Of a stretch of 53,223 bases of DNA, positions 1 to 47,334 are shown one piece after another. Position numbers and translations under genes: made by a program. Within the stretch, counting starts at the first letter, position 1. Every line of letters begins with the position of its first letter. The notes beneath the pieces are model-generated. The model was not told where the DNA came from, made no database searches, and worked only from the letters and a program-made list of their open reading frames with translations. This DNA is from a virus (lineage: Duplodnaviria > Caudoviricetes): IMG/VR virus record IMGVR_UViG_3300048550_000310, positions 1-53,223 of that record; one strand, 5' to 3'.

Positions 1-86
1 ATTTGAATGGAGTTATCCTGCAATGTATCTACAACTCTTTCAAGTCTTTCAATTATAGCAGTATTTAAATTTTGATTCTGTTCCAT
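1..86 (-). CDS. Hypothetical coiled-coil protein, 3'-truncated at window edge
   Basis: Manual translation from ATG at 86: MEQNQNLNTAIIERLERVVDTLQDNSIQ..., open to the window edge, starts 8 nt after the stop of the upstream gene. Confidence 0.6.
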   Translation of the reverse strand, partial: MEQNQNLNTAIIERLERVVDTLQDNSIQ

Positions 87-94
87 AATTGATA

Positions 95-994
95 TCAATT
101 AGGTTTTATGTTTCTGATATGCTTTAATCTTTTATCATAAAACAATTCACCCGCTTCAAAGGGAGAAACTCTTTCGATTTTAATCTGTCTAATAAAACGA
201 GGATTAAATAACATTCTAAATTTTACCATCAAATCATTAGGAGAAGATCCATATATGATAGTAGTCCCCATCTCAGGTACAGTTACTTTATATTGATACA
301 AACGGGAGGGTCTATCGCAAGGGGCAGCTGCCGATTCTTTCATTGATGAAAGTTGACTCTTTTTCGCCCGTTTTTTCTTAGCATTGTTCATAACAGATGA
401 TGCAGTATCAATAGGTTTATCTGGGAGAGAAATTCCTTTGCTATCAAATCCAGGACGATCTGCCTGCATAACATTCTTTTTGGGGGTTGTAGGTGTTGTT
501 GATGAAGGTAATTTAGATTTAGGTGCATCAAATTTAGGTAAATTTCCAATTGTACTTTGTCCCATAGAGGATGTACTACCAGCCATACTACCACTCATGC
601 GGGCAGGAAACCCTGACCCTGTAGGAGTAGATGGTTTTTGTGCGGGTTGTTGTTTAGGTTTAGAACCCATTACACCTTTAACTGCATTACCAACTCCTTT
701 CAAAATACCACCAAGAAACTCATTGATCTGCTCTTCGCTTAAATCATAACCTTGCTCTCTGAGTTTATTAATTCTCTCCAATTGTTTTTCTAAAATAACA
801 TCATCTAATTTTTCCTGGTAACTACGATGGTCTTCTGCCTTCAATGTATTACCAGGCATCACAAGTTTCTTATCCTTTTTACTCTTAACCTTCCTCCGAA
901 ATTTCATGACAGGATCATATCCAGCATTAGGTCCAGTCGCATCTGCGCTGGCACTAAAACCTCCATTTCCAACTGCCATCATTTCTTCTTGCAT
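95..994 (-). CDS. Low-complexity basic protein, candidate internal head (poly)protein
   Basis: 299 aa ORF with K/P/S/G-rich core; shares LSEEQ(I/L)NE(F/L)LGG and MQAxRPGF modules with neighbouring large ORFs. Confidence 0.7.
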   Translation of the reverse strand: MQEEMMAVGNGGFSASADATGPNAGYDPVMKFRRKVKSKKDKKLVMPGNTLKAEDHRSYQEKLDDVILEKQLERINKLREQGYDLSEEQINEFLGGILKGVGNAVKGVMGSKPKQQPAQKPSTPTGSGFPARMSGSMAGSTSSMGQSTIGNLPKFDAPKSKLPSSTTPTTPKKNVMQADRPGFDSKGISLPDKPIDTASSVMNNAKKKRAKKSQLSSMKESAAAPCDRPSRLYQYKVTVPEMGTTIIYGSSPNDLMVKFRMLFNPRFIRQIKIERVSPFEAGELFYDKRLKHIRNIKPN

Positions 995-1353
995 TAGATT
1001 GACTCCAATTGTAAACTCACATGACCATCAATATCTAATTCAGGTAAGAACCCTATAGGATATTTATTCAAATAAATAAGAAACGTTTTCATAAGGGACC
1101 AATACTCTTTTCCCATATAAAGAAATAAGAGAGGTGTTGCTGCTTCACCAAAAACATTATATATGATAATCAAATGATTGAGTATTAAAGGTATTCTCAA
1201 CTCATCATTCTTTAAATATCTTTTAAAAAGACGCTTCAAATATTTAAAGCGTCTCATATCCTCATCAAAATCATCTCGTGTATGACACTGAGGATTATTA
1301 TAATGTTTCATGGCGAACAGAATAGCGTTATTGTTATTCAGTTCGTCAAACAT
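994..1353 (-). CDS. Conserved T4-like phage hypothetical protein
   Basis: 119 aa; FAMKHYNNPQC...RFKYLKRLF...LILNHLIIIYNVFG pattern typical of cyanomyovirus core hypotheticals; TAATG coupling to next gene. Confidence 0.75.
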   Translation of the reverse strand: MFDELNNNNAILFAMKHYNNPQCHTRDDFDEDMRRFKYLKRLFKRYLKNDELRIPLILNHLIIIYNVFGEAATPLLFLYMGKEYWSLMKTFLIYLNKYPIGFLPELDIDGHVSLQLESI

Positions 1354-1356
1354 TTA

Positions 1357-1983
1357 TTAACTACCAAATGTAAGTGTTGCTGCTCCGTCAGAAATAATTT
1401 CCTCAGTACCACCTGCAGAGGTGATCTTGACACGATACTTATAACCGTCAAGCGAATCATCACCGAGACTGCTGTATGCCAGAGTCGCAGTAGTGAAGTC
1501 TGCATAGGTTACACCAGTGTCAAGAGATGCGCTGATGTTGACCCAACGGGTTGTTGCCGCAGCGGTCTGACGTTGCCACTGATAGGACAGAGCACCAGGT
1601 GTTCCTGATGTGGAAGTGCTGAGGGTAAATGTGCCTGCACCAGAGGAGGAAGTAGAAGCAGCGGGTTGTGCCGAGATGGTCACTGCAGATGCTACGTCTG
1701 CTGCAATAGTATCATCACTCAGAGTCTCATCTGCGTTTGCCTCAGGATTAGTGAGGATCATCAGGTGCTCTGCCTTATGACGAGTGTTGCCATTGTGATC
1801 GGTGTAGGTGCGATATGCCCACCAACCAGGTGAGGTGATACCACGCACTTTGTTTTCGTTCAGACCTGCCTCGGTCTCGTCAACGAATACAATAGTTTCT
1901 GTTACAGACCCTGCGCCATTACCTCTAGTCAAGCCGACTTGGGTCTGATTGGCGGTAGAGTCAACTCTTCCGTATAAAGACAT
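1357..1983 (-). CDS. Putative virion structural protein with C-terminal Ig-like domain
   Basis: 208 aa, T/S/A-rich; ITAQP-like ...YQWQ...YKYRVKIT...AATLT pattern of an Ig-like fold; late promoter directly upstream. Confidence 0.65.
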   Translation of the reverse strand: MSLYGRVDSTANQTQVGLTRGNGAGSVTETIVFVDETEAGLNENKVRGITSPGWWAYRTYTDHNGNTRHKAEHLMILTNPEANADETLSDDTIAADVASAVTISAQPAASTSSSGAGTFTLSTSTSGTPGALSYQWQRQTAAATTRWVNISASLDTGVTYADFTTATLAYSSLGDDSLDGYKYRVKITSAGGTEEIISDGAATLTFGS

Positions 1984-2011
1984 TGTGCTCTCCGAATATT
2001 TTCCGTATATT

Positions 2012-2019
2012 TATTTATA
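2012..2019 (-). promoter_or_regulatory. T4-type late promoter TATAAATA
   Basis: Exact TATAAATA on the minus strand 29 nt upstream of ATG 1983. Confidence 0.75.
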
Positions 2020-2020
2020 A

Positions 2021-2215
2021 TTAACGTGCTTTAATAGCCTCCTCTACCTTGTGTAGAAGACGATCATCCATGTCAGTCTTAGTTAATTTGACTGCTTTTT
2101 TAAGAATAATAAGACACACATCAATAAGCTTTTCGCCAAGCTCCTCGTCGTCGGGGAGCTTAGCGACAGCATCCGTAATAATCTTTTGTGCTAATGGAAG
2201 TAAGAATGCTAACAT
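2021..2215 (-). CDS. Hypothetical protein
   Basis: 64 aa helical ORF filling the gap between co-oriented genes. Confidence 0.7.
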   Translation of the reverse strand: MLAFLLPLAQKIITDAVAKLPDDEELGEKLIDVCLIILKKAVKLTKTDMDDRLLHKVEEAIKAR

Positions 2216-2253
2216 GACTAGTACCTATATAATCGGGTCTAATCTATATATGC

Positions 2254-4779
2254 TCAGTCGAAACGAGATGTGTGTTTCGCCATAGCATCGTCATCTTTCT
2301 TTTGCTTCTTAGTCTTACCATGCTTGAGAAGACGCTCGGTGTACTTGTTAACTCTTCTGTTATGAGTTTCAAGTTCACTTTCCTTTTCACCTCTCTTCTT
2401 CTTACTAGTGCGCTTGGCACCAGGGAAGTTTTTCTGGTGCTCTCTTGCTTCAACTGATTTGTTGATGTCAAGTTTCTTACCAGTCTTCTTTTCATAATCA
2501 TCAAGAACGCCTTGACGCTTCTTGACTCTTTCTAAAGACTTCTTAGCATCTTCCCCTCTATCTTCACTCAAGGCATTAATTACACCAAAAGATCTTAATC
2601 TACTAGATTCATTGAATTTACTCCAATCAATCGAAGATGATCCCGGTTTCTTTCCAGTAGGTACTTTCTTTATCGGTTTTGGTCCACCCGAACTTGGAGA
2701 AGATGAAGGACTAGGCGGTTTGTTTACACTTGGTTTTGGTGCACCCGAATTATTAAATCCAGGACGACCTGCCTGCATCGGTTTTGGTTTAGGACCAGAA
2801 GTAGTAGGTTTATTATTTGCAATAGAAACATTGTTTGCTTTCATGGCAGCTTTGTAAAAACCGCCTTTGCCCTTGCCACCACCAAAGATGGGGCTCTTAT
2901 ACATCATCTTCTGCGTGAAAGCTGACATTGGTCTATATGCGGATGGACCAGTTCCATATTGACCAGGACGACCGCGAGGCATTTGGGGAATAGGTACAAA
3001 TCCTTGCTCATCATCATTTTTGTCAACTTGGAATCGGTTTCCTACAACTTTACCACCACCCATGCTTCCTAGAGGAGACTTGAATGCACCTGGATTAGCC
3101 TTGAATGCAGACTTAAAATCCTTTTTGCTATCGTAAGTGCTACCTTTCTTTGCTTCAATAGAACCGGGCAGTGCTTCATCAATTTGATCACCTTCTGGTT
3201 CATAACCAGCAGTCTCAAGAGACTTCTTACCTTTTGCCAAAGGAAGTTGAGGACCAGTCCTCTTCATAAAAGCATCTTTTTCATTGGGATTTGTAGTACC
3301 TTTACCCTTGTCATAGATCTTTTTGCCTTTCATGGCACCTCTATGACCAGGACCGATATCAAAACTCGCTTCAGTCAAGTCGGTTTCAGTTTCGTAGCCT
3401 TCTTGATAGCCTTCTTCTGAAACTTCTTCTTGACTGACATACGCATAGCCCTCCGTAGATACTGTTTTTTCGTCACCTAAATCATCTTTGCGGCGTTTTT
3501 GCTGACACTTCATACAATCACAGTCTTCACCATGATTCTTTTTTACATCACCACCCTTAGAATAGGAACCGCAACCCCCTTCTAAGAGATCATCTTTCTT
3601 AGGATTTAATTTAATTTTGGTTTTTTTTTCAACCAAATAGTCAGCAAATCCTAAGAAAGATTCTTTCTTAGTTTTCTTCTTGACTTCACCGCCTTTTGAT
3701 TTACCTTGATAAGGTTCTACCTTAATTGGTGTTGGTGTTTTGACTTCGGGTGCCTTCGCCCTAATCGGAGGATTAGATGGCATTCCTTTACCGGATGTGC
3801 CAGATCCAAATGTACCGTCTCTCCCAGAACCAGTGTTAGCAGGTACTACTGCTGGCGGAGTCTTTGGTGTGTTAACGCTCTTAATCGCTTTGTCTACAGA
3901 TGCCTGCCTTTCGGTTTGCTTCTTATTAATCTTGTCGGCGTTAGGAGACTGTGCAATAGAAGCAGCCTTAGCATCCTGTCTAGCTTTTTCATTTCCTGCA
4001 TTACGGCTCTTACGATCCTTAATGTACTTCTGCATCAAAGGATTGGTAGACTTCGATGTACCTCTAGTGGCATCACGCTTTGCTTTTGCTGCAGCAAGTT
4101 TTGGATTTGCCTTTTTCCATGCTGCCATACCAGCAGACTCAGCATCTTTTGTTGCTTTCTTCTTGGCATCACCTGTTGCTGCATTAGCAGCAGCTCTCTT
4201 CGTAACATACTCAGCGTTCCTAGTATCATTCTTAGCAGAAGGTTTCTTAGGTTTGGGTGAAGAAGGAGGATTGTCTCTGGTTTGTTTTGCTAGTCTGCTT
4301 TTGTTTGCAGCATTTTTTGCTCTTTCTTGATCAGCTGCAGCATCAGCGGCAGTATAGTTAGAACTATCCTTTGTATCTGCTTTTGTTTTTGTTTTTGTTT
4401 TTGGATCTTTACTACCACCAGAACCATACTGATTAGTTCCAAAGAACTCAGCAGGATTTTTGCTTCTATCTTTTTGATTCCTTGCAGTAATTTCGTCGTC
4501 CTTATCGGTTCTTTTTGGCGGTGCCCTACGAGCCTTTTCTGGTCTTGTTTCACCGTCTACTGCCTGTCCTTTCCTATTAAAAGATGTAGTATGCCCAAAT
4601 CCTGTTTGTGGAGTTCTATCACCAGATCTTACAGCCGGTTCATTGGACCTACTGGGTTCAGGAACTACAGTACGAATACCTTTTTTAACAATATCACCCA
4701 GTCCAAGAACACCTCGCTGCAGCAAATTTAGGTCCTTTTTTTTCTCGTGTAAGTCGGAAAAGTTTTTAAATGATTTCAT
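2254..4779 (-). CDS. Large K/G/P-rich modular protein, candidate capsid-targeted internal polyprotein
   Basis: 841 aa; N-terminus MKSFKNFSDLHE resembles the T4 capsid-targeting sequence; basic blocks separated by acidic (L/I)xE-ending linkers. Confidence 0.7.
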   Translation of the reverse strand: MKSFKNFSDLHEKKKDLNLLQRGVLGLGDIVKKGIRTVVPEPSRSNEPAVRSGDRTPQTGFGHTTSFNRKGQAVDGETRPEKARRAPPKRTDKDDEITARNQKDRSKNPAEFFGTNQYGSGGSKDPKTKTKTKADTKDSSNYTAADAAADQERAKNAANKSRLAKQTRDNPPSSPKPKKPSAKNDTRNAEYVTKRAAANAATGDAKKKATKDAESAGMAAWKKANPKLAAAKAKRDATRGTSKSTNPLMQKYIKDRKSRNAGNEKARQDAKAASIAQSPNADKINKKQTERQASVDKAIKSVNTPKTPPAVVPANTGSGRDGTFGSGTSGKGMPSNPPIRAKAPEVKTPTPIKVEPYQGKSKGGEVKKKTKKESFLGFADYLVEKKTKIKLNPKKDDLLEGGCGSYSKGGDVKKNHGEDCDCMKCQQKRRKDDLGDEKTVSTEGYAYVSQEEVSEEGYQEGYETETDLTEASFDIGPGHRGAMKGKKIYDKGKGTTNPNEKDAFMKRTGPQLPLAKGKKSLETAGYEPEGDQIDEALPGSIEAKKGSTYDSKKDFKSAFKANPGAFKSPLGSMGGGKVVGNRFQVDKNDDEQGFVPIPQMPRGRPGQYGTGPSAYRPMSAFTQKMMYKSPIFGGGKGKGGFYKAAMKANNVSIANNKPTTSGPKPKPMQAGRPGFNNSGAPKPSVNKPPSPSSSPSSGGPKPIKKVPTGKKPGSSSIDWSKFNESSRLRSFGVINALSEDRGEDAKKSLERVKKRQGVLDDYEKKTGKKLDINKSVEAREHQKNFPGAKRTSKKKRGEKESELETHNRRVNKYTERLLKHGKTKKQKKDDDAMAKHTSRFD

Positions 4780-4782
4780 TGT

Positions 4783-7005
4783 TCAACCTCCGTAATTGTC
4801 GCGTGCTTTTTCATCACCCATTTTAGAGAAACGTTCTCTCTCTTTTTGTCTAGCAATAGCACTCACAATCTTGGCAGACTTTTTGCGTGCCTTTTCTTTC
4901 TCATCAGGATCATCAGCAGAAAGAGACTTTCTTGCTAAGTTACCCGCTCTACGATACATTGAATTCTCTTTCTTTTTATCGATTTCTTTGTAACCTTCTT
5001 CGATTACATGTTCGATTTCTTGGATAGAGAAAAGACCAGATTCATACAGATGTGCAATCTGTTCATAATCTTCACCTAAGCGATTTGCAAGTTTATCACT
5101 GCCGCTGGATACTGCACGAGACAGTTTACCAACACCTTTTTTCAGAGCACCCTTAAGTACACCACCAACTCTCTGAATGAAAGTAGGTTTCTCCCCTTTA
5201 CTCTTACCACCTGATTTACCGGAACCGGATTCACCTCTAGCATCACCTCTAATACTAGAGAGGATGTCATCTAACTTACCACCTGTTTTGTCACCATCAT
5301 CATCAGATTTTTTCTTTTTACCATCACCACGCTCCATAGCAGCCTTCTTAGACTTCTTACGTTGTGCTTGGAACTCACCAACACCATGACCAATAGCACG
5401 ACCGCCAGCACCAATTACTGCTTTGGCACCTGCCTTAAGACGCTCACCTGCTTTTGCAGCAGCGGACTTAAGACGATCCATAGCGGAAGGTTTCTTTTTA
5501 TCATCATCCTTCTCCTCTTCCTCCATGAGGATGCCACAGATTTCAAGTTCCTCACAGATTTCAAAAAGATCCTGATCATCTTCTGCCATTTCAAGAATAG
5601 CATCCTCAAAGAATGCTACGAGTTCTTCGTCAGACACATCATCAAAATTACACCCCTCAATGAAGAGTTCCTCTTCTTCAGAGAATGCAAGCGATTCCTT
5701 TCTAGCCTTCACCATATTTCGAGGAATATTTTCCCTGGTTCTTTCTCTTGCACTATCAAAGGTACTCTTTACATTTGATACTTTTTTCTTTAAGTATGCA
5801 GGTCCCTTTGTTATTGCTCTTTCAGTACCACCAACAATATTTCCAGCAAGTCTTGCAGCCTTATCAGCAAATTCCCCTACTGGTCCTTCAAAGATATCGT
5901 CAAGTTCATCATGAATAACTTCTTCTTTATGTGCTTTCTTTTTCTCACCACCTTTGGAGAATCCGAGAAGTCCCTTCGTGGTAGGTTTCTTGCCCATTGC
6001 CTGACCAGCAAGACCGCCGATGCCAGTGCTGGCACCCTTCATGAATCCGCCTTTCTTACCCATGTTCATGAGTCCGCCGACGAGACCACCAAGAAGTTCA
6101 TTCAGTTGCTCCTCACTCAGTTGAAGAAGATCGTTAACGAGTGCTTCCTTGAGCATATCACCTTCCGGTTCATAAACAGCATCCCTTGCTCTGCCACCAG
6201 GAGTCATCTCATCAAGCATATTTGCTACCATATCAACATGGACATTCTCTTTCTTTACAGGACCACCTTTAGAGCGACCCATCAATTTATCCATCTGCAT
6301 TTTACGATCACCCAGAGCGCCGCCAACTCTGTGAACCATGCCACTACCAGTCTTATTACCAACAGGACCCTTTGTTTGTGTCTTAGCAAGAGGGTTCTTA
6401 ATATCTAAATTGGGATGACCAATATAACCATCACCTTTCCTACCGCCAATAAATTCAAGAACAACATCAAGTTGCTCCTCGTGATTTGCCGATAATAGAG
6501 AATCAACAAATTCTTCTACTTCCTCTTTTTTAAGTCTGCTCCAACCAAATCCCTTAGGAGATCCCTTTAGTTTGGACCCGCCAGTTTGACCGCCAGATTG
6601 ACCGCCAGCAGGACCGCCTGATCCTGAACCGCCAGCAGAACCCTTTGCACCCATAGTAGCAGTAGTTTTATTCAAACCCCTACCAGTTTGAACACCATGA
6701 ACATTCTCACCGGGTTGACGACGTTCACCTTTAGTAGTGTATTTGGTGTTACGGTTCCATGGAAGCGCATCAGTTACATCGGCAGCCATTTTAGCCAACC
6801 CTTCTTCTACCGCTGCCACCTCCTCACTACGAGTCTTGATGGCTTTACCACGAACCTTACGGCGATTCAAAAGATACTTATCGGACTTATCATGATCTCC
6901 ATCATTATCAATATCCTTATCTTCTTGTCCAACAGGATCTAGTTTTTTGCCTTCATACACTTGCCTGAGTGCATCAGACATGTCAATTGGTTTAGGATCG
7001 TACAT
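4783..7005 (-). CDS. Large modular protein with alternating acidic and basic blocks, candidate internal head polyprotein
   Basis: 740 aa; LDPVGQEDKDIDNDGDHDKSDKYL motif; repeated acidic linker-(L/I)xE-basic/Gly-rich module; ATAAATA upstream at 7030-7036. Confidence 0.7.
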   Translation of the reverse strand: MYDPKPIDMSDALRQVYEGKKLDPVGQEDKDIDNDGDHDKSDKYLLNRRKVRGKAIKTRSEEVAAVEEGLAKMAADVTDALPWNRNTKYTTKGERRQPGENVHGVQTGRGLNKTTATMGAKGSAGGSGSGGPAGGQSGGQTGGSKLKGSPKGFGWSRLKKEEVEEFVDSLLSANHEEQLDVVLEFIGGRKGDGYIGHPNLDIKNPLAKTQTKGPVGNKTGSGMVHRVGGALGDRKMQMDKLMGRSKGGPVKKENVHVDMVANMLDEMTPGGRARDAVYEPEGDMLKEALVNDLLQLSEEQLNELLGGLVGGLMNMGKKGGFMKGASTGIGGLAGQAMGKKPTTKGLLGFSKGGEKKKAHKEEVIHDELDDIFEGPVGEFADKAARLAGNIVGGTERAITKGPAYLKKKVSNVKSTFDSARERTRENIPRNMVKARKESLAFSEEEELFIEGCNFDDVSDEELVAFFEDAILEMAEDDQDLFEICEELEICGILMEEEEKDDDKKKPSAMDRLKSAAAKAGERLKAGAKAVIGAGGRAIGHGVGEFQAQRKKSKKAAMERGDGKKKKSDDDGDKTGGKLDDILSSIRGDARGESGSGKSGGKSKGEKPTFIQRVGGVLKGALKKGVGKLSRAVSSGSDKLANRLGEDYEQIAHLYESGLFSIQEIEHVIEEGYKEIDKKKENSMYRRAGNLARKSLSADDPDEKEKARKKSAKIVSAIARQKERERFSKMGDEKARDNYGG

Positions 7006-7006
7006 T

Positions 7007-8158
7007 TTACTCAGCGGTCTTATCCTTTTTATTTATCTTCTTTCTACCTTCACCTGGTGTCAATTTTATCATATAATCTCTAAGTTCAGATGTACCAACC
7101 TCACCTGCAGGTGTCCAATTAAAATATTTAAGATCATTAATCTCATGAAGATCCTTTAACCATGATCTAAAAATATTATCATTCTCATCAACATAGATGA
7201 CATAATTACTACCACGACTAACAACTTTTCCAATAACTCCAGTGTTTACATTCTCAACTATCGCACCAATATTAAATAAGACATCATCAAAATATGCTTC
7301 CCTTAAACCCTGAGGATCTAACTTAGGAGCGATCTCATGTAAGTCATATGAAACTTCTGCAAAATCACTAAACTCCTCAACCTGCATAGAACCCCTAAGA
7401 GTATTATAAAGTTCTTGCTTATCTTTTCTACTTAATCCTTCAGGCATACCAGCAACAAAGGTATCATAATCATCTTCCGCTGCTGCTTGTCTAAGTTTAG
7501 ATGCAGACATACCTTCAACACCTTCAGAATCTGGGTCTCTATTGCCTGCAGATACTACATTAATTTTTTCAAAATTATACAGTTTGCCGTTGTACTTGTT
7601 TGCTAACGAGTTAAACTCACTAACCCTGTCACCTCCCACAACCAAAGTAACGCCGCTATACCCCTCACTATCGAGAGCGGTGAGAACATCAAAAATACTA
7701 CGCATATTATCATTCGCGATAATTGCATTAGAGTGATCGGGATATGCCTTCCGCATAAATTTAATTTTAGTACCCGGATCGAGAGGATTCTTTTTGGGGT
7801 CCTGCGATCTACTGGGATATATTCTATACTCTCCATTCTTTGCCTCTCGGGCGACTCTTTTTATTAGAGATTCATGTCCGATAGTAGGGGGATTAAATCT
7901 TCCAAAAGTAATAGCAATCGTACCTTGATCGACCGCACCCGAGCCATCTCCAGTTTCTTCTGCTCCATTCTGTTGATCAGCAACTGCTTGGGTACTAGGA
8001 TCTAATTGTACAAGTTTTCCGTCCTGAGACATATGAGTAACTTCGCCACGTTCGTTGGCGTATCTACCATACCCTACATGTGTCAGTCTTAATTTTTCTG
8101 CGTCCTGTGATGCGCGAGATCTTGCCGCTTCAGTTAGGAAAGCACTAAAACTTTTCAT
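7007..8158 (-). CDS. HIGH-family nucleotidyltransferase ('cytidyltransferase') with capsid-targeting-like N-terminus
   Basis: 383 aa; TFGRFNPPTIGH (HIGH motif), VGGDR, MSASKLR; begins MKSFSAFLTE. Confidence 0.85.
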   Translation of the reverse strand: MKSFSAFLTEAARSRASQDAEKLRLTHVGYGRYANERGEVTHMSQDGKLVQLDPSTQAVADQQNGAEETGDGSGAVDQGTIAITFGRFNPPTIGHESLIKRVAREAKNGEYRIYPSRSQDPKKNPLDPGTKIKFMRKAYPDHSNAIIANDNMRSIFDVLTALDSEGYSGVTLVVGGDRVSEFNSLANKYNGKLYNFEKINVVSAGNRDPDSEGVEGMSASKLRQAAAEDDYDTFVAGMPEGLSRKDKQELYNTLRGSMQVEEFSDFAEVSYDLHEIAPKLDPQGLREAYFDDVLFNIGAIVENVNTGVIGKVVSRGSNYVIYVDENDNIFRSWLKDLHEINDLKYFNWTPAGEVGTSELRDYMIKLTPGEGRKKINKKDKTAE

Positions 8159-8159
8159 T

Positions 8160-9068
8160 CTACCAATTTTTTTTAAGATTAAAGTTTGCTTTACTAAAAG
8201 TCAGTCGATCTACAATTTTATATGGATTGTTCGAGATTATTACAAAGCCTTCGTGTGAAGATGGTTTACCATCAATGAAACATTCAACATTCCCATTTGT
8301 GACAATCGCATCCAGTAGACGCTGTTTCAGTTGGAAGATTTTATGCCACACCATAAGGGTCTGAACATTAACCTCTTGTTTATATTTAGCATCCATAGCA
8401 GCGTACATAACTCCGGCACTCGGAATGCTGCCAGCGCGAATAAATTTATTGACAAAGGTCCTCAAATACAATCTAGTGTGCTTGTCTTTAGATACCTTAC
8501 ACTGAGGAATCAATGTAAGAATCTCAGCAATCAATTTGGGTGCAAACCATTTACTAACACGAGCATCAGTAGTATCGATGAACTCGGTGCCTAGTGCAGA
8601 CGAAAGTTTAACACCAATATGTGCCTCAGCATTAGGAGATACCTCAGTGTACCTGGTGTGAGGTGCTACAATAATATCCCTAGTAACAGGAGAATCAAAC
8701 CGATAACTAATAGTGTTGGGAGTATATGTCCTGCCGCCACCAACACCAATAAAGTCAGCTTGAACAATATCATTAATACGGGGAAGATTATGAAGACACA
8801 AACGAAGGATATCAGCGACCCTACCAGTATGGTTTTGATCGATATCTTCTTGGGTATAATTAATTTTGACTTTAATTTTGTTAAAGACTGACTTTGTTCC
8901 CACAAAAAACTTGCCATTTTCAGGATTAGTACCAAAAACAATTGCGGGAGCACCGTCCCATTTGACACTGACTTTACTACAGAGAACTGCCTGCCGGACA
9001 GCATCAAGTGCCACACGACGACCGTCGAAGATAGAATCCTCTAGGTGTTCAAGGTGTTTGTTGGGCAT
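8160..9068 (-). CDS. Conserved phage protein with ATP-dependent ligase-like nucleotidyltransferase motifs
   Basis: Start moved to ATG 9068 (MPNKHLEHLED, GAGG upstream); VKWDGAP (KxDG), HEGFVI and YKIV motifs. Confidence 0.65.
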   Translation of the reverse strand: MPNKHLEHLEDSIFDGRRVALDAVRQAVLCSKVSVKWDGAPAIVFGTNPENGKFFVGTKSVFNKIKVKINYTQEDIDQNHTGRVADILRLCLHNLPRINDIVQADFIGVGGGRTYTPNTISYRFDSPVTRDIIVAPHTRYTEVSPNAEAHIGVKLSSALGTEFIDTTDARVSKWFAPKLIAEILTLIPQCKVSKDKHTRLYLRTFVNKFIRAGSIPSAGVMYAAMDAKYKQEVNVQTLMVWHKIFQLKQRLLDAIVTNGNVECFIDGKPSSHEGFVIISNNPYKIVDRLTFSKANFNLKKNW

Positions 9069-9089
9069 GTCCCTCGTGTCTATACCACT

Positions 9090-9134
9090 ATTATAGCATG
9101 TCAAAGTTGAGTCGCACATAGGGTTGTGACAGTT
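9090..9134 (-). promoter_or_regulatory. Putative early promoter AACTGTC-N29-TGCTATAAT
   Basis: Extended -10 TGCTATAAT plus an upstream AACTGTC box; same architecture at 27931-27974 and 30301-30344. Confidence 0.65.
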
Positions 9135-10426
9135 TAAATACCGGACCTAAGGATCTTTTTAAATTCTGGCGTGATGCCAGCAAAGAACTGAGGCATGGCG
9201 GTAAATGATCCTTTATATCTTAACTCAATATCAAGAACGGGGGTCTTTCCTTTATACAAAGTAAAGAAAACTTTTGCTGCATCTCTAGCAAAAGTTTTCT
9301 GCTTATCCAATTCCATTCTTGCGGGTTGTTTTGCTAACGTTGCCATGGCAATCATAACACTATGAATATCAACCATATTGGCATTACCAACACTAGGTTT
9401 TAAATTATTATCAACAGTACCAACACCTTCCGTTAGATAGAATCCAAACTCAGCTTGCTTCCATGTGTTTAGTTCGTCTAAAAGATTTACCTTAAGAACT
9501 CTTGTTAGTAACGCATCCGCAAGGGTATTACTAACAGCAGGTTTATTCATAATTTCAAGAAATCCAGAGTACAAAGGATTCAATCGACCACCCGTACTCT
9601 TCAACTGATCATTAACATAATTTCTAAAACTTTTTTGTGAGGGAGAACTACCAGATTTAATAAGACCATCTCTAGAAAGTTCGTTCTCTCCTTTAAGATT
9701 AATCAGTGCAATCTGTTCAACCTTTTTTCCTTTCTGTCTAGCAACTTTCATATCCCACAATACCTTTGCATCCTGTACATTACTAGGATTTAATTTTGCA
9801 ATATCCTTTTTCGCAACACCAATATTCTCAAGGGGACCACCCTTTTGACATGCCTGTTTAATTACACCGGCAAAAAATTTAATTCTATGTTCGTTTAGTT
9901 GTGCTCTAACTGGTGCAAGTTTTGGACCCTCAATGAATTTTGAGAATGCGTTATTAATTAGAGTTGGACTTGCTGCAGTTGTTGCTGGTTTCTTTTTCAA
10001 AGAGATACCAACATATGTTTTAGGAGGATAAAACAAAATGACATCGGAGGAGTTGTAGTCCGCCATGCCATATGCGTTGATCTTAAATTTTTCTACGTCC
10101 CTATGCCATTTATTACCAGTTAAATATACTCTTGCCGGAATACCAGGACTAACTTCTTTTCTAGTTCCAATAACAGCAGAAATTGCTGCTGCCATATCAG
10201 CATATACTTTTTTCTTTGCTGCATCATTTGGAAGTTGAATGGCAGCAATCATTCCATTTTTAGTTACATTACCCGCAGCATCTAAAACATTATTTCCTTG
10301 AAGATTCTGCAATATTTTAGCATACAAAGAATCAAATACAGCAGGATCTGTTTTTGCTTGCATTAGTTCGACTGTAGGCAGAAACGCTGCTCCTGCATAC
10401 AGTCCTTCCGAAGGTTCGTATGCCAT
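9134..10426 (-). CDS. Hypothetical protein, possible PD-(D/E)xK nuclease fold
   Basis: 430 aa; EPSEG...NSSDVIL...YVGISLKK resembles the D...(E/S)xK core of restriction-like nucleases; CTAAATA upstream at 10447-10453. Confidence 0.55.
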   Translation of the reverse strand: MAYEPSEGLYAGAAFLPTVELMQAKTDPAVFDSLYAKILQNLQGNNVLDAAGNVTKNGMIAAIQLPNDAAKKKVYADMAAAISAVIGTRKEVSPGIPARVYLTGNKWHRDVEKFKINAYGMADYNSSDVILFYPPKTYVGISLKKKPATTAASPTLINNAFSKFIEGPKLAPVRAQLNEHRIKFFAGVIKQACQKGGPLENIGVAKKDIAKLNPSNVQDAKVLWDMKVARQKGKKVEQIALINLKGENELSRDGLIKSGSSPSQKSFRNYVNDQLKSTGGRLNPLYSGFLEIMNKPAVSNTLADALLTRVLKVNLLDELNTWKQAEFGFYLTEGVGTVDNNLKPSVGNANMVDIHSVMIAMATLAKQPARMELDKQKTFARDAAKVFFTLYKGKTPVLDIELRYKGSFTAMPQFFAGITPEFKKILRSGI

Positions 10427-10449
10427 ACCCTAACATTATTTTTAAGTAT

Positions 10450-10656
10450 TTAGTGAAGGTTATGCCAGACAGCACCGATATTCATCTTACCATGAAAGTA
10501 ACCAGAAACGATCACACTAAGTGTCGCTGCTATCACCCCCAGAAACATCAGACTCGGAACTATCGGGTTCTTCGGTAATGTCGGATTCGATGATGTATCG
10601 TCGGGTTCGGTTTCCTCTGGAGTCGAGGGTTTCGGTTCGATACCATCTTCCATCAA
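10450..10656 (-). CDS. Small membrane protein
   Basis: 68 aa with one hydrophobic segment LMFLGVIAATLSVIVSGYF; ATGA overlap with upstream gene. Confidence 0.6.
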   Translation of the reverse strand: MMEDGIEPKPSTPEETEPDDTSSNPTLPKNPIVPSLMFLGVIAATLSVIVSGYFHGKMNIGAVWHNLH

Positions 10657-10753
10657 CCAGCTCCGCTATGCTCGTTAGCAGGTTTTCCGCTATCGCTTTG
10701 TTGCTCGCTTGCTTCCACCTTGGAATGATGTTGGAGTCGTTCGGGGTTGTCAT
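10517..10753 (-). CDS. Possible overlapping hypothetical protein
   Basis: 78 aa ORF in the third frame with protein-like helix + beta-hairpin pattern; fully covered by the two flanking ORFs. Confidence 0.4.
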   Translation of the reverse strand: MTTPNDSNIIPRWKQASNKAIAENLLTSIAELVDGRWYRTETLDSRGNRTRRYIIESDITEEPDSSESDVSGGDSSDT

Positions 10754-10976
10754 TTACTGAGGGAACGAAGGGTGTACGGGAAAGATTCTTGATTACAATG
10801 AAGGCATCTTTATTATACTTACGATGCCCTTTGGGTGATGACCACTTCTTATTGTAACCTTCAGGTTGCTCAATACCAGAGACCACAGTGCCTCCAATAT
10901 CAATATGAATATCGTCATTGGTATCCCATCCGAGCGTTTGAATGGTTTGCCAGAGGTCTTCTTGTGTAAACTTCAT
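10653..10976 (-). CDS. Conserved cyanophage hypothetical protein
   Basis: 107 aa; IGGTVVSGI...KWS...G.RKYNKDAFIVIKN; ATGA-coupled to mazG. Confidence 0.7.
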   Translation of the reverse strand: MKFTQEDLWQTIQTLGWDTNDDIHIDIGGTVVSGIEQPEGYNKKWSSPKGHRKYNKDAFIVIKNLSRTPFVPSVNDNPERLQHHSKVEASEQQSDSGKPANEHSGAG

Positions 10977-11374
10977 ACATCACCTTCCTTACGATTCTCG
11001 GAGAAGTGAACATCAAATGTACCTTCTGGATATCGAGCAGAAAGTTTCTCCACATTCATGGCAAGCACTTCATCGAGACTAATGTTCAGACCGATACATG
11101 CTTGAGCAACATACCACATGATGTCACCCAGTTCACGCTTCAGGTGAAACAGGTTTTCTTCATTGACAGATTTGCCCTGAAAGACAATCTTCTTGACAAC
11201 TTCAGTAAACTCACCTGCCTCAGCAGACATTCCTACAGCAGCAGTAAGCAATCGCTCGGTAGGAAATCCCTGACCTTCAAGTTCTTGAAGACGATAAATG
11301 AATGCTTCATACTCTTTGGACGGTGTTGACGTAACTGCATTGACGAATTCAGCATACTTTTTAGGGTCAATCAT
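10973..11374 (-). CDS. mazG: MazG-family nucleotide pyrophosphohydrolase
   Basis: AEAGEFTEVVKK...KRELGDIMWY MazG motif. Confidence 0.9.
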   Translation of the reverse strand: MIDPKKYAEFVNAVTSTPSKEYEAFIYRLQELEGQGFPTERLLTAAVGMSAEAGEFTEVVKKIVFQGKSVNEENLFHLKRELGDIMWYVAQACIGLNISLDEVLAMNVEKLSARYPEGTFDVHFSENRKEGDV

Positions 11375-12752
11375 ACTTTAAATCTTGAAACGTTTTCTTT
11401 GTTGTAAATTTTTTAACAAGGTCAATTTGCTGTTCTTCAGATCCTTGACCAGAATCAACCAAATCTTTCTGAGCAGATTCCTCAACATCATACAACTTCA
11501 TTTTGGATCTGTCAATACCTATACAGAACCTTTTGTTCATGGCAATATCATTATATCGATTCTTCAATTGCTTGACCATGATCTGATTCATGCCTTCAAG
11601 TTCTTCCGTACTAATAAGGGCAAACATAAGATCAGCAGTAGCAGGAAGACCAAAGGACTCTGAAGTATCAGTAAGGTCAACATCAGAGCTACCATAACCT
11701 GCACGAGTGGTCTGTGTAGCAGAGATGATAGGAACATTACACTCGCAAGCAAAACCTCTAAGTTCCTCTGCGATTGCTTTGACATATGTGTAGGAGTTGA
11801 CAATGCTGCCTTTATATCGTTGGGACGCACAGATATTAAGGTAATCAACAAAGATAATATCGGGTTTAATACTCCGCTTAAGAGCAAGATCACTAACAAG
11901 AGACTTGAAATGTCCGACATGTGCAGATGCCGTAGGGTATTCTTTAATTATAAGTTTACCCTGAGTCTTCTTACTTAGTGTCTTGATCTTCTTATCGAAC
12001 ATAACCTTAGGAAGATCCGTCAATTTTTGAATGGGTATGTTGAGAAGATTCGCGTCAATACGTTCTGCGATTTTCTCCTCCGCCATTTCCAGTGTGATAT
12101 AAAGGACGTTCTTACCCTGTAGGAGTGCTGAAGCGGCAACGTGGCACATAAACAAAGACTTGCCCACACCAGTACCAGCGAGTGCGATATTAAGAGTCTT
12201 ATTAGGAAGACCCCCCTTGGTGATTTTATTAAAGAAGTCAAGATCGAACGGGATCTTGGCCTCTTTGCGATGGTAGAATTCATACCTTTGTTCTGCGTCT
12301 AGGACATAATCGTGACCTACATGCTGATCGAAAGAGACACCTAGTGCCTCTGAAAGAATTGAAGGAATAGCACCTTTATCCCTCTTGGTATCTTGACCGT
12401 CAGCAATCTTGACACTCTCCATAAGAGATAGGTAGATCGCACGCTCCTGACACCACTTCTCCGTAGTATCAACGAGCCAATCGTAGTCTGCGGTATCATC
12501 GGAAAGGACATTTAAAACCTCAAGAATTTCTTTGAATTGATCTTCGTTAAGATCTGTTCTCTCCTGACATTCTATAGCAATAGCGTTAAGAGATGGTAGA
12601 GAATCGTACTGATTCACATACTCATGAATCTCTAAGAAAATAATCTTATGAGACCTTTCTTGAAAGTAATCCATTTTAAGAAAAGGAAGAACTTTTCTTA
12701 TGTACTTCTCACTATTAATGAGGTTGCTAAGAATAGTAAGTTCTAAACTCAT
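11367..12752 (-). CDS. g41: Replicative DnaB-like helicase gp41
   Basis: Walker A AGTGVGKS, ITLEMAE, FVDYLNI, SESFGLPATAD, KQLKNRY; start moved to ATG 12752. Confidence 0.95.
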   Translation of the reverse strand: MSLELTILSNLINSEKYIRKVLPFLKMDYFQERSHKIIFLEIHEYVNQYDSLPSLNAIAIECQERTDLNEDQFKEILEVLNVLSDDTADYDWLVDTTEKWCQERAIYLSLMESVKIADGQDTKRDKGAIPSILSEALGVSFDQHVGHDYVLDAEQRYEFYHRKEAKIPFDLDFFNKITKGGLPNKTLNIALAGTGVGKSLFMCHVAASALLQGKNVLYITLEMAEEKIAERIDANLLNIPIQKLTDLPKVMFDKKIKTLSKKTQGKLIIKEYPTASAHVGHFKSLVSDLALKRSIKPDIIFVDYLNICASQRYKGSIVNSYTYVKAIAEELRGFACECNVPIISATQTTRAGYGSSDVDLTDTSESFGLPATADLMFALISTEELEGMNQIMVKQLKNRYNDIAMNKRFCIGIDRSKMKLYDVEESAQKDLVDSGQGSEEQQIDLVKKFTTKKTFQDLKYD

Positions 12753-37536: not shown

Positions 37537-37568
37537 AACACTTCCTTCACACGGTATATTTATTTATA
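37512..37568 (-). ncRNA. Candidate short RNA / 3'-UTR element with GUGUGAAGGAAGU motif
   Basis: TATAAATA (37561-37568), then the motif, then the terminator, with no ORF between. Confidence 0.35.
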
Positions 37569-40384: not shown

Positions 40385-40392
40385 TATTTATA
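40385..40392 (-). promoter_or_regulatory. Late promoter TATAAATA upstream of g22
   Basis: Exact match in the g21-g22 intergenic region. Confidence 0.8.
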
Positions 40393-40394
40393 AA

Positions 40395-41039
40395 TCACAA
40401 ACTCTTTAAAAATCTCGCAAACGCGGAAACTTTGCGTTCTTGAAGATTGATAAGAGTTGCTTCATCAATTTCAGTTTTGATTTGAGCAACAGCCGCCTCT
40501 TTGAGGATGCCATTATCCCAAACCCATTCTTTTCCTTCCATAATACCGTCAACAAATGCATCAGGAGCAGAAGGATCAGCAACGATATCAGCTGCAGTAG
40601 CAAGCATGAAATCGTCCGCAACCATGTTGCAGTTTTCCTTTTTAATAATAGAACCCATACCTCTGGATGAAACACCCAGTTTTACACCTTCATCGAGTAG
40701 ATTTTTTGCAATTTTCCCCATAGGTGTATCTAGGAGTTTTGCACGACCGACGAAGTTGGTTCCATCTTCCGACAGAGATGTAATCTTATGTGATACTCTA
40801 TCGAGATTGATAGAGGGACCATCGGGATGACCTAATTCACCAAGAGCACGCCCTTTGCGAATATAGTTCTCATCGTATTTAGCAACTTCGCGTGCCAAAG
40901 TTTTCATTGGGTACATTCTGCCGTTGCGGTTTCTCAATTCCGCTTGCAGAAAGATACCTTCAATGAAGTAATTCTTTTTACCATCTTTCTCTTCACAGAG
41001 AAAATCGATATTTGTAATCTCTTCGGCTATGAGTCTCAT
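40395..41039 (-). CDS. g21: Prohead protease gp21
   Basis: NRNGRMY, ALGELGHP, GVSSRGMG, DIVADPSAPDA; start moved to ATG 41039. Confidence 0.95.
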   Translation of the reverse strand: MRLIAEEITNIDFLCEEKDGKKNYFIEGIFLQAELRNRNGRMYPMKTLAREVAKYDENYIRKGRALGELGHPDGPSINLDRVSHKITSLSEDGTNFVGRAKLLDTPMGKIAKNLLDEGVKLGVSSRGMGSIIKKENCNMVADDFMLATAADIVADPSAPDAFVDGIMEGKEWVWDNGILKEAAVAQIKTEIDEATLINLQERKVSAFARFLKSL

Positions 41040-41043
41040 CGGT

Positions 41044-41352
41044 TTATTCCTCAGGTTCTTGTTCGTCAGTTTCATACTCTGCTTCGGGTGATTCATGAGG
41101 TTGACGTTCGTCAACATCTACATCCGTATACTCAATATCAGTTCCATCTGGAAGTTGATCTTTGAGTTCATCCGCAACACCTTGAGCAGTGTCATCTGGA
41201 TTAAATCCCCAACTCTGAACAAAATCTTGTTTTCCTTGCTGAATAGCATCATAGCTGATTGCCCCAAGAGCATCAGCAACAGAATCAATAGACTTTGCTT
41301 TTTCGTCGTTATAGATTTGATCTACAATTTGTCTGGCGATATCGCTAGGCAT
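41044..41352 (-). CDS. Acidic prohead-core-like protein (g67/g68 position)
   Basis: 102 aa, acidic, between g20 and g21; ATAAATA upstream at 41376-41382. Confidence 0.65.
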   Translation of the reverse strand: MPSDIARQIVDQIYNDEKAKSIDSVADALGAISYDAIQQGKQDFVQSWGFNPDDTAQGVADELKDQLPDGTDIEYTDVDVDERQPHESPEAEYETDEQEPEE

Positions 41353-44959: not shown

Positions 44960-44967
44960 TATTTATA
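44960..44967 (-). promoter_or_regulatory. Late promoter TATAAATA upstream of the g19 cluster
   Basis: Exact match just downstream of the g18 terminator. Confidence 0.8.
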
Positions 44968-47326: not shown

Positions 47327-47334
47327 TATTTATA
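47327..47334 (-). promoter_or_regulatory. Late promoter TATAAATA upstream of g18
   Basis: Exact match in the g17-g18 intergenic region. Confidence 0.8.

Follow-up and report, generated by a model that had tools for sequence, protein, structure and literature searches.

The DNA analyzed here (the window, a stretch of 53,223 nucleotides) is part of a T4-like cyanomyovirus that is ~75% identical, at the nucleotide level, to Synechococcus phage Syn30. This marine cyanobacterial virus carries two genes, A and B, back to back. The pair, its neighbors and the head protease of the same phage are as follows.

2254..4779, minus strand: gene D, 841-aa protein with the N-terminus MKSFKNF (phrog_1784, function unknown)
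4783..7005, minus strand: gene C, 740-aa low-complexity protein rich in Lys/Gly/Glu (phrog_764 match)
7007..8158, minus strand: gene B, 383-aa HIGH-motif nucleotidyltransferase with a NadD/PPAT-like core at residues ~80-257 (PF01467, Foldseek, invariant motifs)
8160..9068, minus strand: gene A, 302 aa, DUF6267, candidate OB-less ligase/capping-type covalent nucleotidyltransferase (PF19782, invariant residues, weak fold likeness)
9090..9104, minus strand: TTGACA (9104-9099), then TGCTATAAT (9098-9090), in the 65-nt gap upstream of A (sequence)
40395..41117, minus strand: head maturation protease, T4 gp21 type (phrog_207, E 5.2e-89)

A single base separates the stop codon of gene A (8160-8162) from the ATG of gene B at 8158. 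Gene C starts 1 nt past the stop of B and so belongs to the same tightly packed gene string, and gene D starts 3 nt past the stop of C. In Syn30, S-PM2, Melnitz and EniLVp02, the A/B pair is part of the replication block, with the gp41 helicase on one side and the gp61 primase on the other. The family matched by gene C, phrog_764, is labeled "cytidyltransferase", and the Pfam search gave no PF01467 match for gene C. This label and the labels "NrdB ribonucleotide reductase A subunit" and "DNA helicase", which are found on the A and B families, look like carry-over errors. The gene upstream of A (9134-10426) was considered as a third component and dropped, as an iterated HMM search found relatives in only two loci. 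By eye, its product and the N-terminal 320 residues of one A-B fusion protein (P0001) each resembled a PD-(D/E)xK nuclease; BLASTP found no similarity between the two.

The product of gene A matches Pfam PF19782 (DUF6267) with 328.4 bits (cut-off 27, E 9.6e-98) over profile positions 1-376, and all 61 aligned homologues match the same model. An earlier note, made from the sequence of the window, had read the KWDG, EGFVI and YKIV of this product as motifs I, IV and V of ATP-dependent ligases and capping enzymes, and the three motifs do occur in that order.

8952..8963, minus strand: motif I-like KWDG, residues 36-39, with K36 as the candidate nucleotidyl-accepting lysine (sequence, conservation)
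8211..8252, minus strand: motif IV-like EGFVI (residues 273-277, nt 8252-8238) and motif V-like YKIV (residues 283-286, nt 8222-8211), two adjacent strands (sequence, model)

Residues K36, D38, G39, E273, G274 and K284 are invariant among the 61 homologues, which are 27-56% identical to A. As judged from this conservation, the motifs exceed chance, since all six motif residues are retained throughout. R288 is invariant in the same alignment, as is an extra N-terminal segment, H-L-E-H-x-E-D. T58-K59 of A stands 23 residues past K36; in an alignment of gp30-type ligases, R178 of the SRxG stretch, which we take to be ligase motif Ia, stands 20 residues past K158. A longer open reading frame for gene A opens at 9119. 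The true start is likely the ATG at 9068, since most homologues start at the equivalent residue and a GAGGG lies 3 nt upstream. Homologues of A were found in 456 cyanophage records.

The AlphaFold model of A (pLDDT 95.1) places strands at residues 274-277 and 283-285, in the motif IV/V region, and past motif V it shows a single short helix (288-296). The C-terminal OB domain with motif VI is absent from this model, in agreement with the earlier note, which had seen no evident OB domain. The proposal that A has a ligase-like fold stood in part: the nearest solved folds are those of ligases and capping enzymes, while the scores are weak. In the Foldseek comparison with the PDB, 45 of the 48 listed rows belonged to ligases or capping enzymes, and the best E value was 0.017; among the matches listed, TM scores ranged from 0.23 to 0.27 and none reached E 0.001. 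In BFVD, the first rows beyond the A family itself were those of an RNA ligase (E 8.3e-4, probability 0.95), of a capping enzyme and of Rnl2-type ligases; of the viral folds with a name, those closest to A beyond its own family were the RNA ligases Atu_ph07, Rnl2-type and RM378. A language-model atlas gave a lead, to be read as a lead only, to an RNA-ligase cluster with PF09414 on 48% of its members (score 0.78). Sequence comparisons were negative throughout. Neither phmmer nor a profile search found a ligase among the PDB matches of A, no ligase family was among the 25 Pfam families listed for the 61 members, the NCBIfam search gave A no ligase assignment, and hhalign of the A alignment against a 32-sequence alignment of gp30-type ligases returned a probability of 0.45%. 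On balance, A probably belongs to the ligase/capping-enzyme fold class.

The gene directly after A encodes, as had been proposed, a NadD/CoaD-like HIGH transferase: it has the HIGH motif, it matches PF01467 above the cut-off (29.1 bits, cut-off 21), and its predicted fold is NadD/PPAT-like.

8126..8158, minus strand: leader of B, MKSFSAFLTEA; Glu10 precedes a candidate protease site (likeness to the T4 IPII/IPIII leader)
7874..7906, minus strand: HIGH signature FGRFNPPTIGH, residues 85-95 (F85, G86, R87, N89, P90, P91, T92, G94 and H95 invariant in 31 sequences)
7490..7513, minus strand: second nucleotide-binding signature GMSASKLR, residues 216-223 (M217, S218, A219, K221 and R223 invariant in 31 sequences)

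The invariant motifs of the B family are thus FGRxNPPTxGH and MSASKxR. The conservation alignment of 31 sequences left out the fusions with an N-terminal (P0088, P0099) or middle (P0001) domain order, as well as P0011, P0081, P0093, P0105, P0113 and P0119. GMSASKLR aligns with EGISGTKIR of MJ0951 and presumably corresponds to the ISxTxxR-type motif of the superfamily. Foldseek against the PDB gave 49 matches at E<=1e-3, led by NadD (1.2e-5), PPAT (2.0e-5), NadM and archaeal NMNAT, with target-normalized TM scores of 0.6-0.69 for the top matches. The core of the B model has a pLDDT of 80-93; outside it, the model shows the leader, a disordered linker and two small beta parts, an N-terminal module and a C-terminal domain. 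In NCBIfam, B fell below the cut-off of all seven NadD/NMNAT equivalog models (TIGR00482, TIGR01526 and others), with scores such as 21.6 bits against 112.45 and 16.6 against 341.15. B also has a PKKNPL run in common with Pseudomonas PPAT. Cyanophage records with a B homologue number 462.

A and B are coupled well beyond this window. Among 812 proteins of at least 560 aa that match A, the B-type domain is also present in 113 of the best 120, at the C-terminal end in 108, in the middle in three and at the N-terminal end in two, and a Pfam search of ten long DUF6267 proteins for extra domains returned PF01467-type partners only. As separate genes, A is immediately followed downstream by B in 28 of 80 viral loci, and the same holds for 4 of 17 loci in a genome collection. 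Syn30 and S-RIM8 have such an adjacent pair, and the 591-aa protein of S-PM2 is a natural fusion. In 51 of the 80 viral loci A has no B nearby (at least 1.2 kb of downstream sequence is present in 42 of these), and in the Bellamy and ACG-2014f genomes the B orthologue is located away from A. Both genes occur in five of six large or complete phage genomes. The expectation that fusions exist in other phages and that the genes co-occur across genomes is therefore borne out, with at least 113 fused proteins. The suggestion that the usual "cytidyltransferase" label hides a two-enzyme system holds to the extent that the second enzyme is ligase-like in its motifs, weakly so in its fold, and that the two are coupled by fusion or adjacency. 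Since the two domains are so often fused, A and B probably act in one pathway, and from these gene arrangements we consider it very probable that they form one functional unit. A structure prediction for the A+B complex (score 0.00, mark 0.32) carries no weight for or against binding. We found no description of a paired or fused ligase-type and HIGH-type nucleotidyltransferase in the full-text literature, including under DUF6267.

An early-type promoter had been suggested upstream of A, and this part of the earlier note did not hold. The TTGACA is separated from the TATAAT (9095-9090) by merely 3 nt, and a sigma-70 scan, which requires a 16-18 nt spacer, calls no site there. At most, TGCTATAAT at 9098-9090 is a possible extended -10 element. 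The same scan found no enrichment of promoter-like sites in positions 1-12000 (32 found versus 25.7 +/- 5.2 expected). The T4-type late promoter TATAAATA occurs at 6 sites against 3.15 expected, none of them upstream of A or B. In the RNA data, a small fraction of the stretch (0.07) turned up in one run only, as short contigs that are 90-95% alike; these span the A/B junction (8123-8328) together with portions of both genes, and are not proof of transcription, just as gaps in this coverage carry no meaning.

The N-terminus of B, described beforehand as capsid-targeting-like, does resemble the leader of T4 IPII/IPIII (MKSFSAFLTEA versus MKTYQEFIAEA, the latter taken from NC_000866). The leader is retained in 119 of 120 close B homologues and in all 27 B orthologues in the viral loci. 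A similar leader stands before the HLEH motif in 23 of 147 DUF6267 representatives, while gene A in the window has none; MKSFKNF of gene D is a second leader-like N-terminus. Leader-like starts were seen at 50 of 1252 first-Met ORF starts versus 6 of 2763 internal Met positions. Excerpts of the T4 literature describe such leaders as 10-20 residues long and cut after Glu (PMC5694885), and describe the internal proteins as defence-countering proteins that share the leader alone (PMC3012670). The T4 gp21-type head protease of the window is the enzyme expected to trim leaders of this kind. According to excerpts of PMC10665884, mass spectrometry of S-CREM2 virions detected gp154, with 3 unique peptides and 11.2% coverage, and the authors allow for carry-over of abundant proteins into the virion proteome; the excerpted tables of virion proteins do not list gp87, the homologue of A. 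The S-CREM2 gp154 protein is 34% identical to B and begins with MKNFSSFLTEA. NMNAT-like proteins were also found in virions of other cyanomyoviruses, as given in the excerpted text of PMC9602691. The idea that one member of the pair is injected with the DNA is plausible for B, with its T4-like leader and its homologue in S-CREM2 virions (PMC10665884, in part), and by analogy we think it likely that B is packaged in the virion of this phage.

The distribution of canonical ligases gives the pair a context. We found no match to PF01068 or PF01653, the canonical DNA ligase families, in four Kyanoviridae (Syn30, Bellamy, ACG-2014f and Melnitz), none to PF01653 in Syn30 and five other phage genomes, and none to PF09414 in Syn30; in all, 10 genomes were searched for at least one such family. 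A 2010 review, in the part of its text that bears on the matter, states that no g30 homologue is known from cyanomyoviruses and asks whether marine cyanomyoviruses encode a distant homologue of the ligase or depend on their host for it (PMC2984593). A simple rule by which DUF6267 replaces gp30 is ruled out, since two Vibrio phages hold both DUF6267 and a canonical ATP-dependent ligase. These two phages, together with the gp30 reported for phage DLP6 (PMC5349666) and one Stenotrophomonas record among the A matches, argue that A is not simply a stand-in for gp30.

We put slightly less than an even chance on the reading that the pair constitutes a two-enzyme module for nucleotidyl transfer that is specific to phages and is brought in, at least in part, together with the DNA. 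A would most likely be a minimal, OB-less member of the ligase/capping fold that takes a nucleotide, probably AMP, onto Lys36 and hands it to a 5'-phosphate polynucleotide end, for nick sealing or end adenylylation. B would be a NadD/PPAT-type adenylyltransferase synthesized with a T4-type capsid-targeting leader that brings it into the prohead; the head protease would then cut after Glu10, and the trimmed protein would be ejected into the cell along with the DNA. As a best guess, B would make or regenerate the adenylyl donor for A, a NAD-like dinucleotide formed from a mononucleotide and ATP; alternatively, it may pre-adenylylate the phosphate substrate of A. A virus without a gp30-type ligase would in this way have an end-joining or repair activity of its own as early as the first minutes of infection. 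We infer the ligase chemistry of A, the packaging in this phage, the donor-acceptor relation of the two enzymes, and the substrate; the specific chemistry is tentative, and we lean clearly against its being right in its particulars. A bolder form, which we regard as improbable, makes DUF6267 and its HIGH partner the "missing" ligase of T4-like cyanophages in a self-contained cycle: B would rebuild the NAD-like donor from ATP and the mononucleotide released by A, the HLEHxED segment of A would be the counterpart of the NMN-binding domain of LigA, and at least B would enter with the DNA. If this were so, phage DNA could be sealed or protected from the first moments, even under a DNA-nicking or NAD+-draining defence.

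Three other explanations compete with a nucleotidyl-transfer module. The pair could serve NAD+ supply only, with virion-borne B as an NMN/NaMN adenylyltransferase that tops up NAD+ early (to serve the NAD-dependent ligase of the host or redox needs, or to counter an NAD-depleting defence) and A as an accessory with ligase-like motifs but no ligase chemistry. NadD, NadM and archaeal NMNAT among the best folds of B point this way, as do its weak NCBIfam matches, which are all to NMNAT-type models, and excerpts of two papers in which the virion protein is termed NMNAT-like and a part in regulating NAD+ is proposed (PMC9602691, PMC10665884). However, B lies far under every NMNAT equivalog cut-off, its PPAT matches are equally good and include the PKKNPL run, and no nicotinamide phosphoribosyltransferase was seen beside the pair in the gene lists inspected; this explanation also leaves the invariance of the putative catalytic residues of A and the fusion in 113 of the best 120 long proteins unaccounted for, and we consider it unlikely. 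It is also conceivable, and in our estimate quite unlikely, that A, in the manner of T4 Rnl1 and Rnl2, is an RNA ligase and rejoins tRNA or mRNA after cleavage by the host's anticodon nucleases or by other RNase defences, with B assisting, for example by restoring or activating the end. The RNA ligases nearest to A in BFVD, the language-model lead and the retention of DUF6267 in phages that already hold a gp30 ligase fit this proposal, and RNA ligases are likewise not known to carry an OB domain. Against it, the genomic setting of the pair is a DNA replication block, the PF09414 search of Syn30 was blank, the annotated neighborhoods of A that were inspected held no polynucleotide kinase-phosphatase, 2H/HAD phosphoesterase or RtcB, and no HIGH-type transferase is known to act as an RNA end-healing enzyme.

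The remaining explanation denies A the ligase type altogether: the KxDG/EG/K pattern and the weak folds would be convergent or over-read, and DUF6267 would be another enzyme or a non-enzymatic internal head protein that travels with B. The uniformly negative sequence-based ligase comparisons, the lack of a PDB match at E 0.001 and the low TM scores among the matches listed, the atypical motif spacing and the head-targeting-like leader on many DUF6267 proteins all agree with it. Yet 45 of the 48 PDB rows listed, and likewise the first BFVD rows with a name, belong to a single enzyme superfamily, which argues against random fold noise, and the invariant charged and glycine residues stand in the canonical order, as expected of a nucleotide-binding active site; we do not expect this explanation to be correct, although it deserves as much credence as NAD+ supply.

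DUF6267 is a concrete candidate for the distant ligase homologue of marine cyanomyoviruses about which PMC2984593 asks in the excerpted text. Its candidacy rests on the 456 cyanophage records, the position in the replication block and an invariant lysine that is open to mutation. The T4-like leader, present on B and many DUF6267 proteins, would account for the repeated finding of proteins termed "NMNAT-like" among the virion proteomes of cyanophages, and enzymes with a capsid-targeting leader would widen the T4 idea of ejected counter-defence proteins. Marine cyanomyoviruses are among the most abundant viruses of the ocean.

Compared with known polynucleotide ligases and capping enzymes (human DNA ligase I, T4 Rnl2 and the Naegleria RNA ligase are examples), which are, weakly, its nearest solved and viral folds, A has KxDG, EG and K in the same order, with these residues invariant in its family. 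In contrast, A has no OB or other recognized C-terminal domain, it carries a helical insertion (~80 to 180 residues) ahead of motif IV, it has QGD at the motif III position where ligases have DGE, and motifs IV and V are spaced by 11 residues rather than the 21 of the gp30-type alignment. Profile-level sequence similarity is absent, and the invariant H-L-E-H-x-E-D segment is extra. LigA, an NAD+-dependent DNA ligase with an N-terminal NMN-binding domain Ia, is like A in having a conserved, His/Asp/Glu-rich N-terminal helical segment just before the KxDG lysine, and the partner of A has the fold of NAD+-making enzymes, while the OB, zinc-finger, HhH and BRCT domains of LigA are missing in A; NAD+ use by A is pure conjecture. 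With T4 IPI, IPII and IPIII, B shares a leader of ~10 residues, M-K-[ST]-[FY]-x-x-F-[LI]-x-E-A, that ends in Glu, and the window phage also encodes a gp21-type protease. The T4 internal proteins are small and basic, whereas B, a candidate for packaging and cleavage, is a 383-aa enzyme, and the gene sits in the replication block without a TATAAATA late promoter in front. Finally, B is like NadD/NMNAT and PPAT (CoaD) in its HxGH-type and ISxTxxR-type motifs, its Rossmann-like fold and its PF01467 match. It differs from them in scoring far under the equivalog cut-offs, in the added leader, beta modules and disordered linker, and in forming a phage-only lineage that is fused to, or stands beside, DUF6267.

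The window was identified from its sequence as a fragment of a T4-like cyanomyovirus (Kyanoviridae), based on cyanophage matches and T4-type gene content. A 2.1-kb stretch matched 121 phage records, all of them Synechococcus or Prochlorococcus phages or named 'Cyanophage' (best match Syn30, 75.2% identity), and the window also codes for a portal, head maturation protease, scaffold, and major capsid protein as well as a gp43-type DNA polymerase, UvsX, a gp41-type helicase, and MazG. The source record consists of just this 53-kb window and is an estimated 29% complete. The genes of interest are all on the minus strand:

8160-9068 (-), gene A, 302 aa, ligase-like motifs
7007-8158 (-), gene B, 383 aa, HIGH-motif nucleotidyltransferase
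4783-7005 (-), gene C, 740 aa, long, low-complexity, Lys/Glu/Gly-rich; 1 nt after the stop of B
2254-4779 (-), gene D, 841 aa, long, low-complexity, Lys/Glu/Gly-rich; 3-nt gap after C

The earlier note had A ending 1 nt before B, and indeed a single base separates the A stop from the B ATG (8158), so that A, B, C, and D form a tightly packed four-gene string. The boundaries 8160-9068 also proved right: the longer ORF holding A spans 8160-9119, but the majority of homologues begin at the residue matching the ATG at 9068, which has GAGGG 3 nt upstream. The motifs KWDG, EGFVI, and YKIV were found as claimed, at residues 36-39, 273-277, and 283-286. The proposed early-type promoter did not hold up, as the TTGACA-TATAAT spacing is 3 nt and a sigma-70 scan calls no site; only an extended -10-like TGCTATAAT remains. 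The gene upstream of A (9134-10426 (-), 430 aa) belongs to phrog_3060, which has no function label. Its language-model features were closest to HaeIII (PF09556) and HpaII restriction-endonuclease clusters (score 0.94, 191-192 features in common), which is a lead only; an iterated HMM search found relatives at only 2 loci, and it is not a conserved neighbor of A.

The two genes are coupled across phages. The PHROG 455 profile covers both A and B, and 812 proteins of at least 560 aa matched A; among the best 120 of these, 113 carried a B-type domain, located C-terminally in 108, in the middle in 3, and N-terminally in 2. These differing positions mean that the fusion arose, or was rearranged, more than once. 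S-PM2 has a 591-aa A-B fusion at the same place, after gp41 and MazG. In 80 viral loci with A homologues, B was directly downstream in 28, one locus was cut at the end of A, and 51 had A alone, 42 of them with at least 1.2 kb of downstream sequence. The lone-A group matches phages of the Bellamy and ACG-2014f kind; in both complete genomes a B orthologue (44% and 41% identity) lies 75-95 kb from A. In Melnitz and Vibrio phage EniLVp02, a B-type gene adjoins A or is one gene away; Vibrio phage 2.275.O encodes A along with PF01467 proteins, none of which tblastn ties to B. A and B thus co-occur across genomes; the earlier note had listed a lack of co-occurrence as part of what would refute its reading. 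In the literature searched, with supplementary tables outside its scope, we found no description of the pairing, the fusions, or a T4-type leader on such enzymes.

Gene A matched Pfam DUF6267 (PF19782, E 9.6e-98), for which a full-text search by family name found no paper. The family (1454 representative clusters at E<=1e-3) is essentially phage-only: it occurred in 470 phage records, 456 of them cyanophages, at 17 loci in a set of 185,579 species genomes (almost all of these loci on short contigs assembled from metagenomes), and in 0 of 14 control cellular genomes; T4 and 121Q are without it. Across 61 aligned members, 27-56% identical to A, the residues H8, K36, D38, G39, G46, F55, K59, L88, N207, E273, G274, K284, R288, and F291 were invariant, covering motifs I, IV, and V and a T-K, 23 residues past the lysine, that resembles motif Ia. 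The confident AlphaFold model (pLDDT 95.1, pTM 0.90) carries the motifs on beta strands. It lacks an OB domain and has a helical insertion (~177-254) that is far longer in family members of 400 aa. No Foldseek match in the PDB reached E<=0.001, yet of the 48 matches listed, 45 were ligases (DNA or RNA) or capping enzymes (best E 0.017, TM 0.23-0.27). Against viral models, the first 21 matches were family members or unnamed proteins, followed by an RNA ligase (E 8.3e-4), a capping enzyme, and more RNA ligases. Together, the motifs and the fold matches make a ligase-type fold for A likely, although not proven.

Gene B scored above the PF01467 cut-off, and FGRxNPPTxGH and MSASKxR were invariant in 31 sequences. 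Its model core (pLDDT 80-93) matched NadD, PPAT, NadM, and archaeal NMNAT, with 49 matches at E<=1e-3. B is a HIGH superfamily member but not an orthologue of any of these; every NCBIfam score was far under its cut-off. Its profile gave only weak PDB matches, to MJ0951 (E 0.0096) and to PPAT with a PKKNPL run in common. Flanking the core in the model are a leader helix at the N-terminus, a small beta module at residues 26-51, a disordered linker, and, at about residues 300-339, a small beta domain toward the C-terminus. The last (7139-7273 (-), residues about 296-340) is common to S-CREM2 gp154 and matches phrog_4808 (E 4.5e-9), labeled 'ribonucleotide reductase alpha subunit'.

The start of B, MKSFSAFLTEA, resembles those of the T4 internal proteins (NC_000866; IPII and IPIII, MKTYQEFIAEA; IPI, MKTFKEF). 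These proteins have only a 10-20-residue targeting sequence in common, undergo cleavage after Glu by the prohead protease, and counter host defence (PMC3012670, PMC5694885). That protease is encoded in the window. Of 120 close B homologues, 119 have the leader, as do all 27 B orthologues of the viral loci and also S-CREM2 gp154, whose overall identity to B is only 34%. Other cyanophage-contig ORFs begin MKTFQEFIAEA, all but identical to the T4 leader, and T4-like leaders occurred at 50 of 1252 first-Met ORF starts versus 6 of 2763 internal Met positions; B orthologues, which are not independent, make up many of the 50. Small ORFs on viral contigs (loci L046, L074, L033, L008, and others) begin MKTFQEFIAEA, MKTFAEFVAEA, or MKTYSQFIVE, near-identical to the IPII/IPIII leader, and one recurrent family continues YDKDVMGSSQIRKQGEG. 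The T4 capsid-targeting sequence seems to extend, conserved, to cyanomyoviruses. Many 400-aa DUF6267 proteins have a similar leader (e.g., M-K-T-F-K-Q-Y-I-V-E) just before a conserved HLEH motif (23 of 147 representatives, fragments included); short cyanophage forms, A among them, begin right at HLEH.

Mass spectrometry detected gp154 in CsCl-purified S-CREM2 virions (PMC10665884); the authors note that such proteins are repeatedly detected in cyanophage virions and also warn of possible carry-over of abundant protein (PMC10665884, PMC9602691). Two results speak against taking the genes simply as late and structural: the covered parts of the S-CREM2 virion table do not list gp87, the homologue of A (PMC10665884), and a scan of the window found no T4 late-promoter word TATAAATA upstream of A or B. 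The window has six such sites versus 3.15 expected, a count that is not significant. They include 2012-2019, 37561-37568, 40385-40392, 44960-44967, and 47327-47334 (-), some just upstream of the scaffold gene and a phrog_613 'head protein' gene.

Genes C and D may be further head-internal proteins. Gene D begins MKSFKNF, like IPI; gene C has a DPVGxEDxDIDNDGD motif and matches phrog_764 (label 'cytidyltransferase') without any PF01467 match. In S-CREM2 (OR473000.1, 124608-129235, locus L097), gp155, gp156, and gp160, which follow the B homologue, were also virion-detected by mass spectrometry (PMC10665884), so the cluster downstream of B may encode head-internal proteins in general. Gene C differs in length among strains, as contigs of a relative from a marine DNA run carry, at window 5194-6613, in-frame-sized indels of 3, 18, and 27 nt together with an 82-nt skip that has 16 replacing letters.

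Our preferred reading is that A and B constitute a two-enzyme nucleotidyl-transfer module, in which A would take AMP onto K36 and pass it to a 5'-phosphate polynucleotide end, while B would supply or regenerate the adenylyl donor or pre-activate the substrate. B would be packaged in the head and ejected; the same would hold for A or the fusion in other lineages. That the pair serves NAD+ supply only is unlikely; the core of B matches NadD and NMNAT folds, and its family scores set it apart from both. RNA repair, in whose favor the RNA ligases among the viral fold matches of A speak, we consider quite improbable. It is doubtful that A is not a ligase at all, given its invariant motifs on one side and its PDB E-values on the other.

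Syn30 had no PF01068, PF01653, or PF09414 match, and Bellamy, ACG-2014f, and Melnitz had no PF01068 or PF01653 match. A 2010 review found no g30 and rnh homologues in cyanomyoviruses and left distant homologues open (PMC2984593); gp30 is among the genes absent from some marine cyanophages (PMC2993671). With no canonical ligase in the Kyanoviridae genomes checked and the review's question open, DUF6267, in the replication block, is a candidate for such a distant ligase. Other phages have it together with gp30, so it is more than a stand-in for gp30; both Vibrio phages (EniLVp02, 2.275.O) hold a PF01068 ligase. In public records, 'NrdB ribonucleotide reductase A subunit' is the name given to a 728-aa protein of metaG-MbCM1 that contains DUF6267, a 121Q cytidyltransferase record note also says NrdB, and the B-like EniLVp02_0207 is named 'DNA helicase'; these names are likely annotation carry-over errors. 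Compared with the ligase/capping nucleotidyltransferases, A lacks their sequence homology and their OB domain, yet it would work like them and may be a very divergent member.
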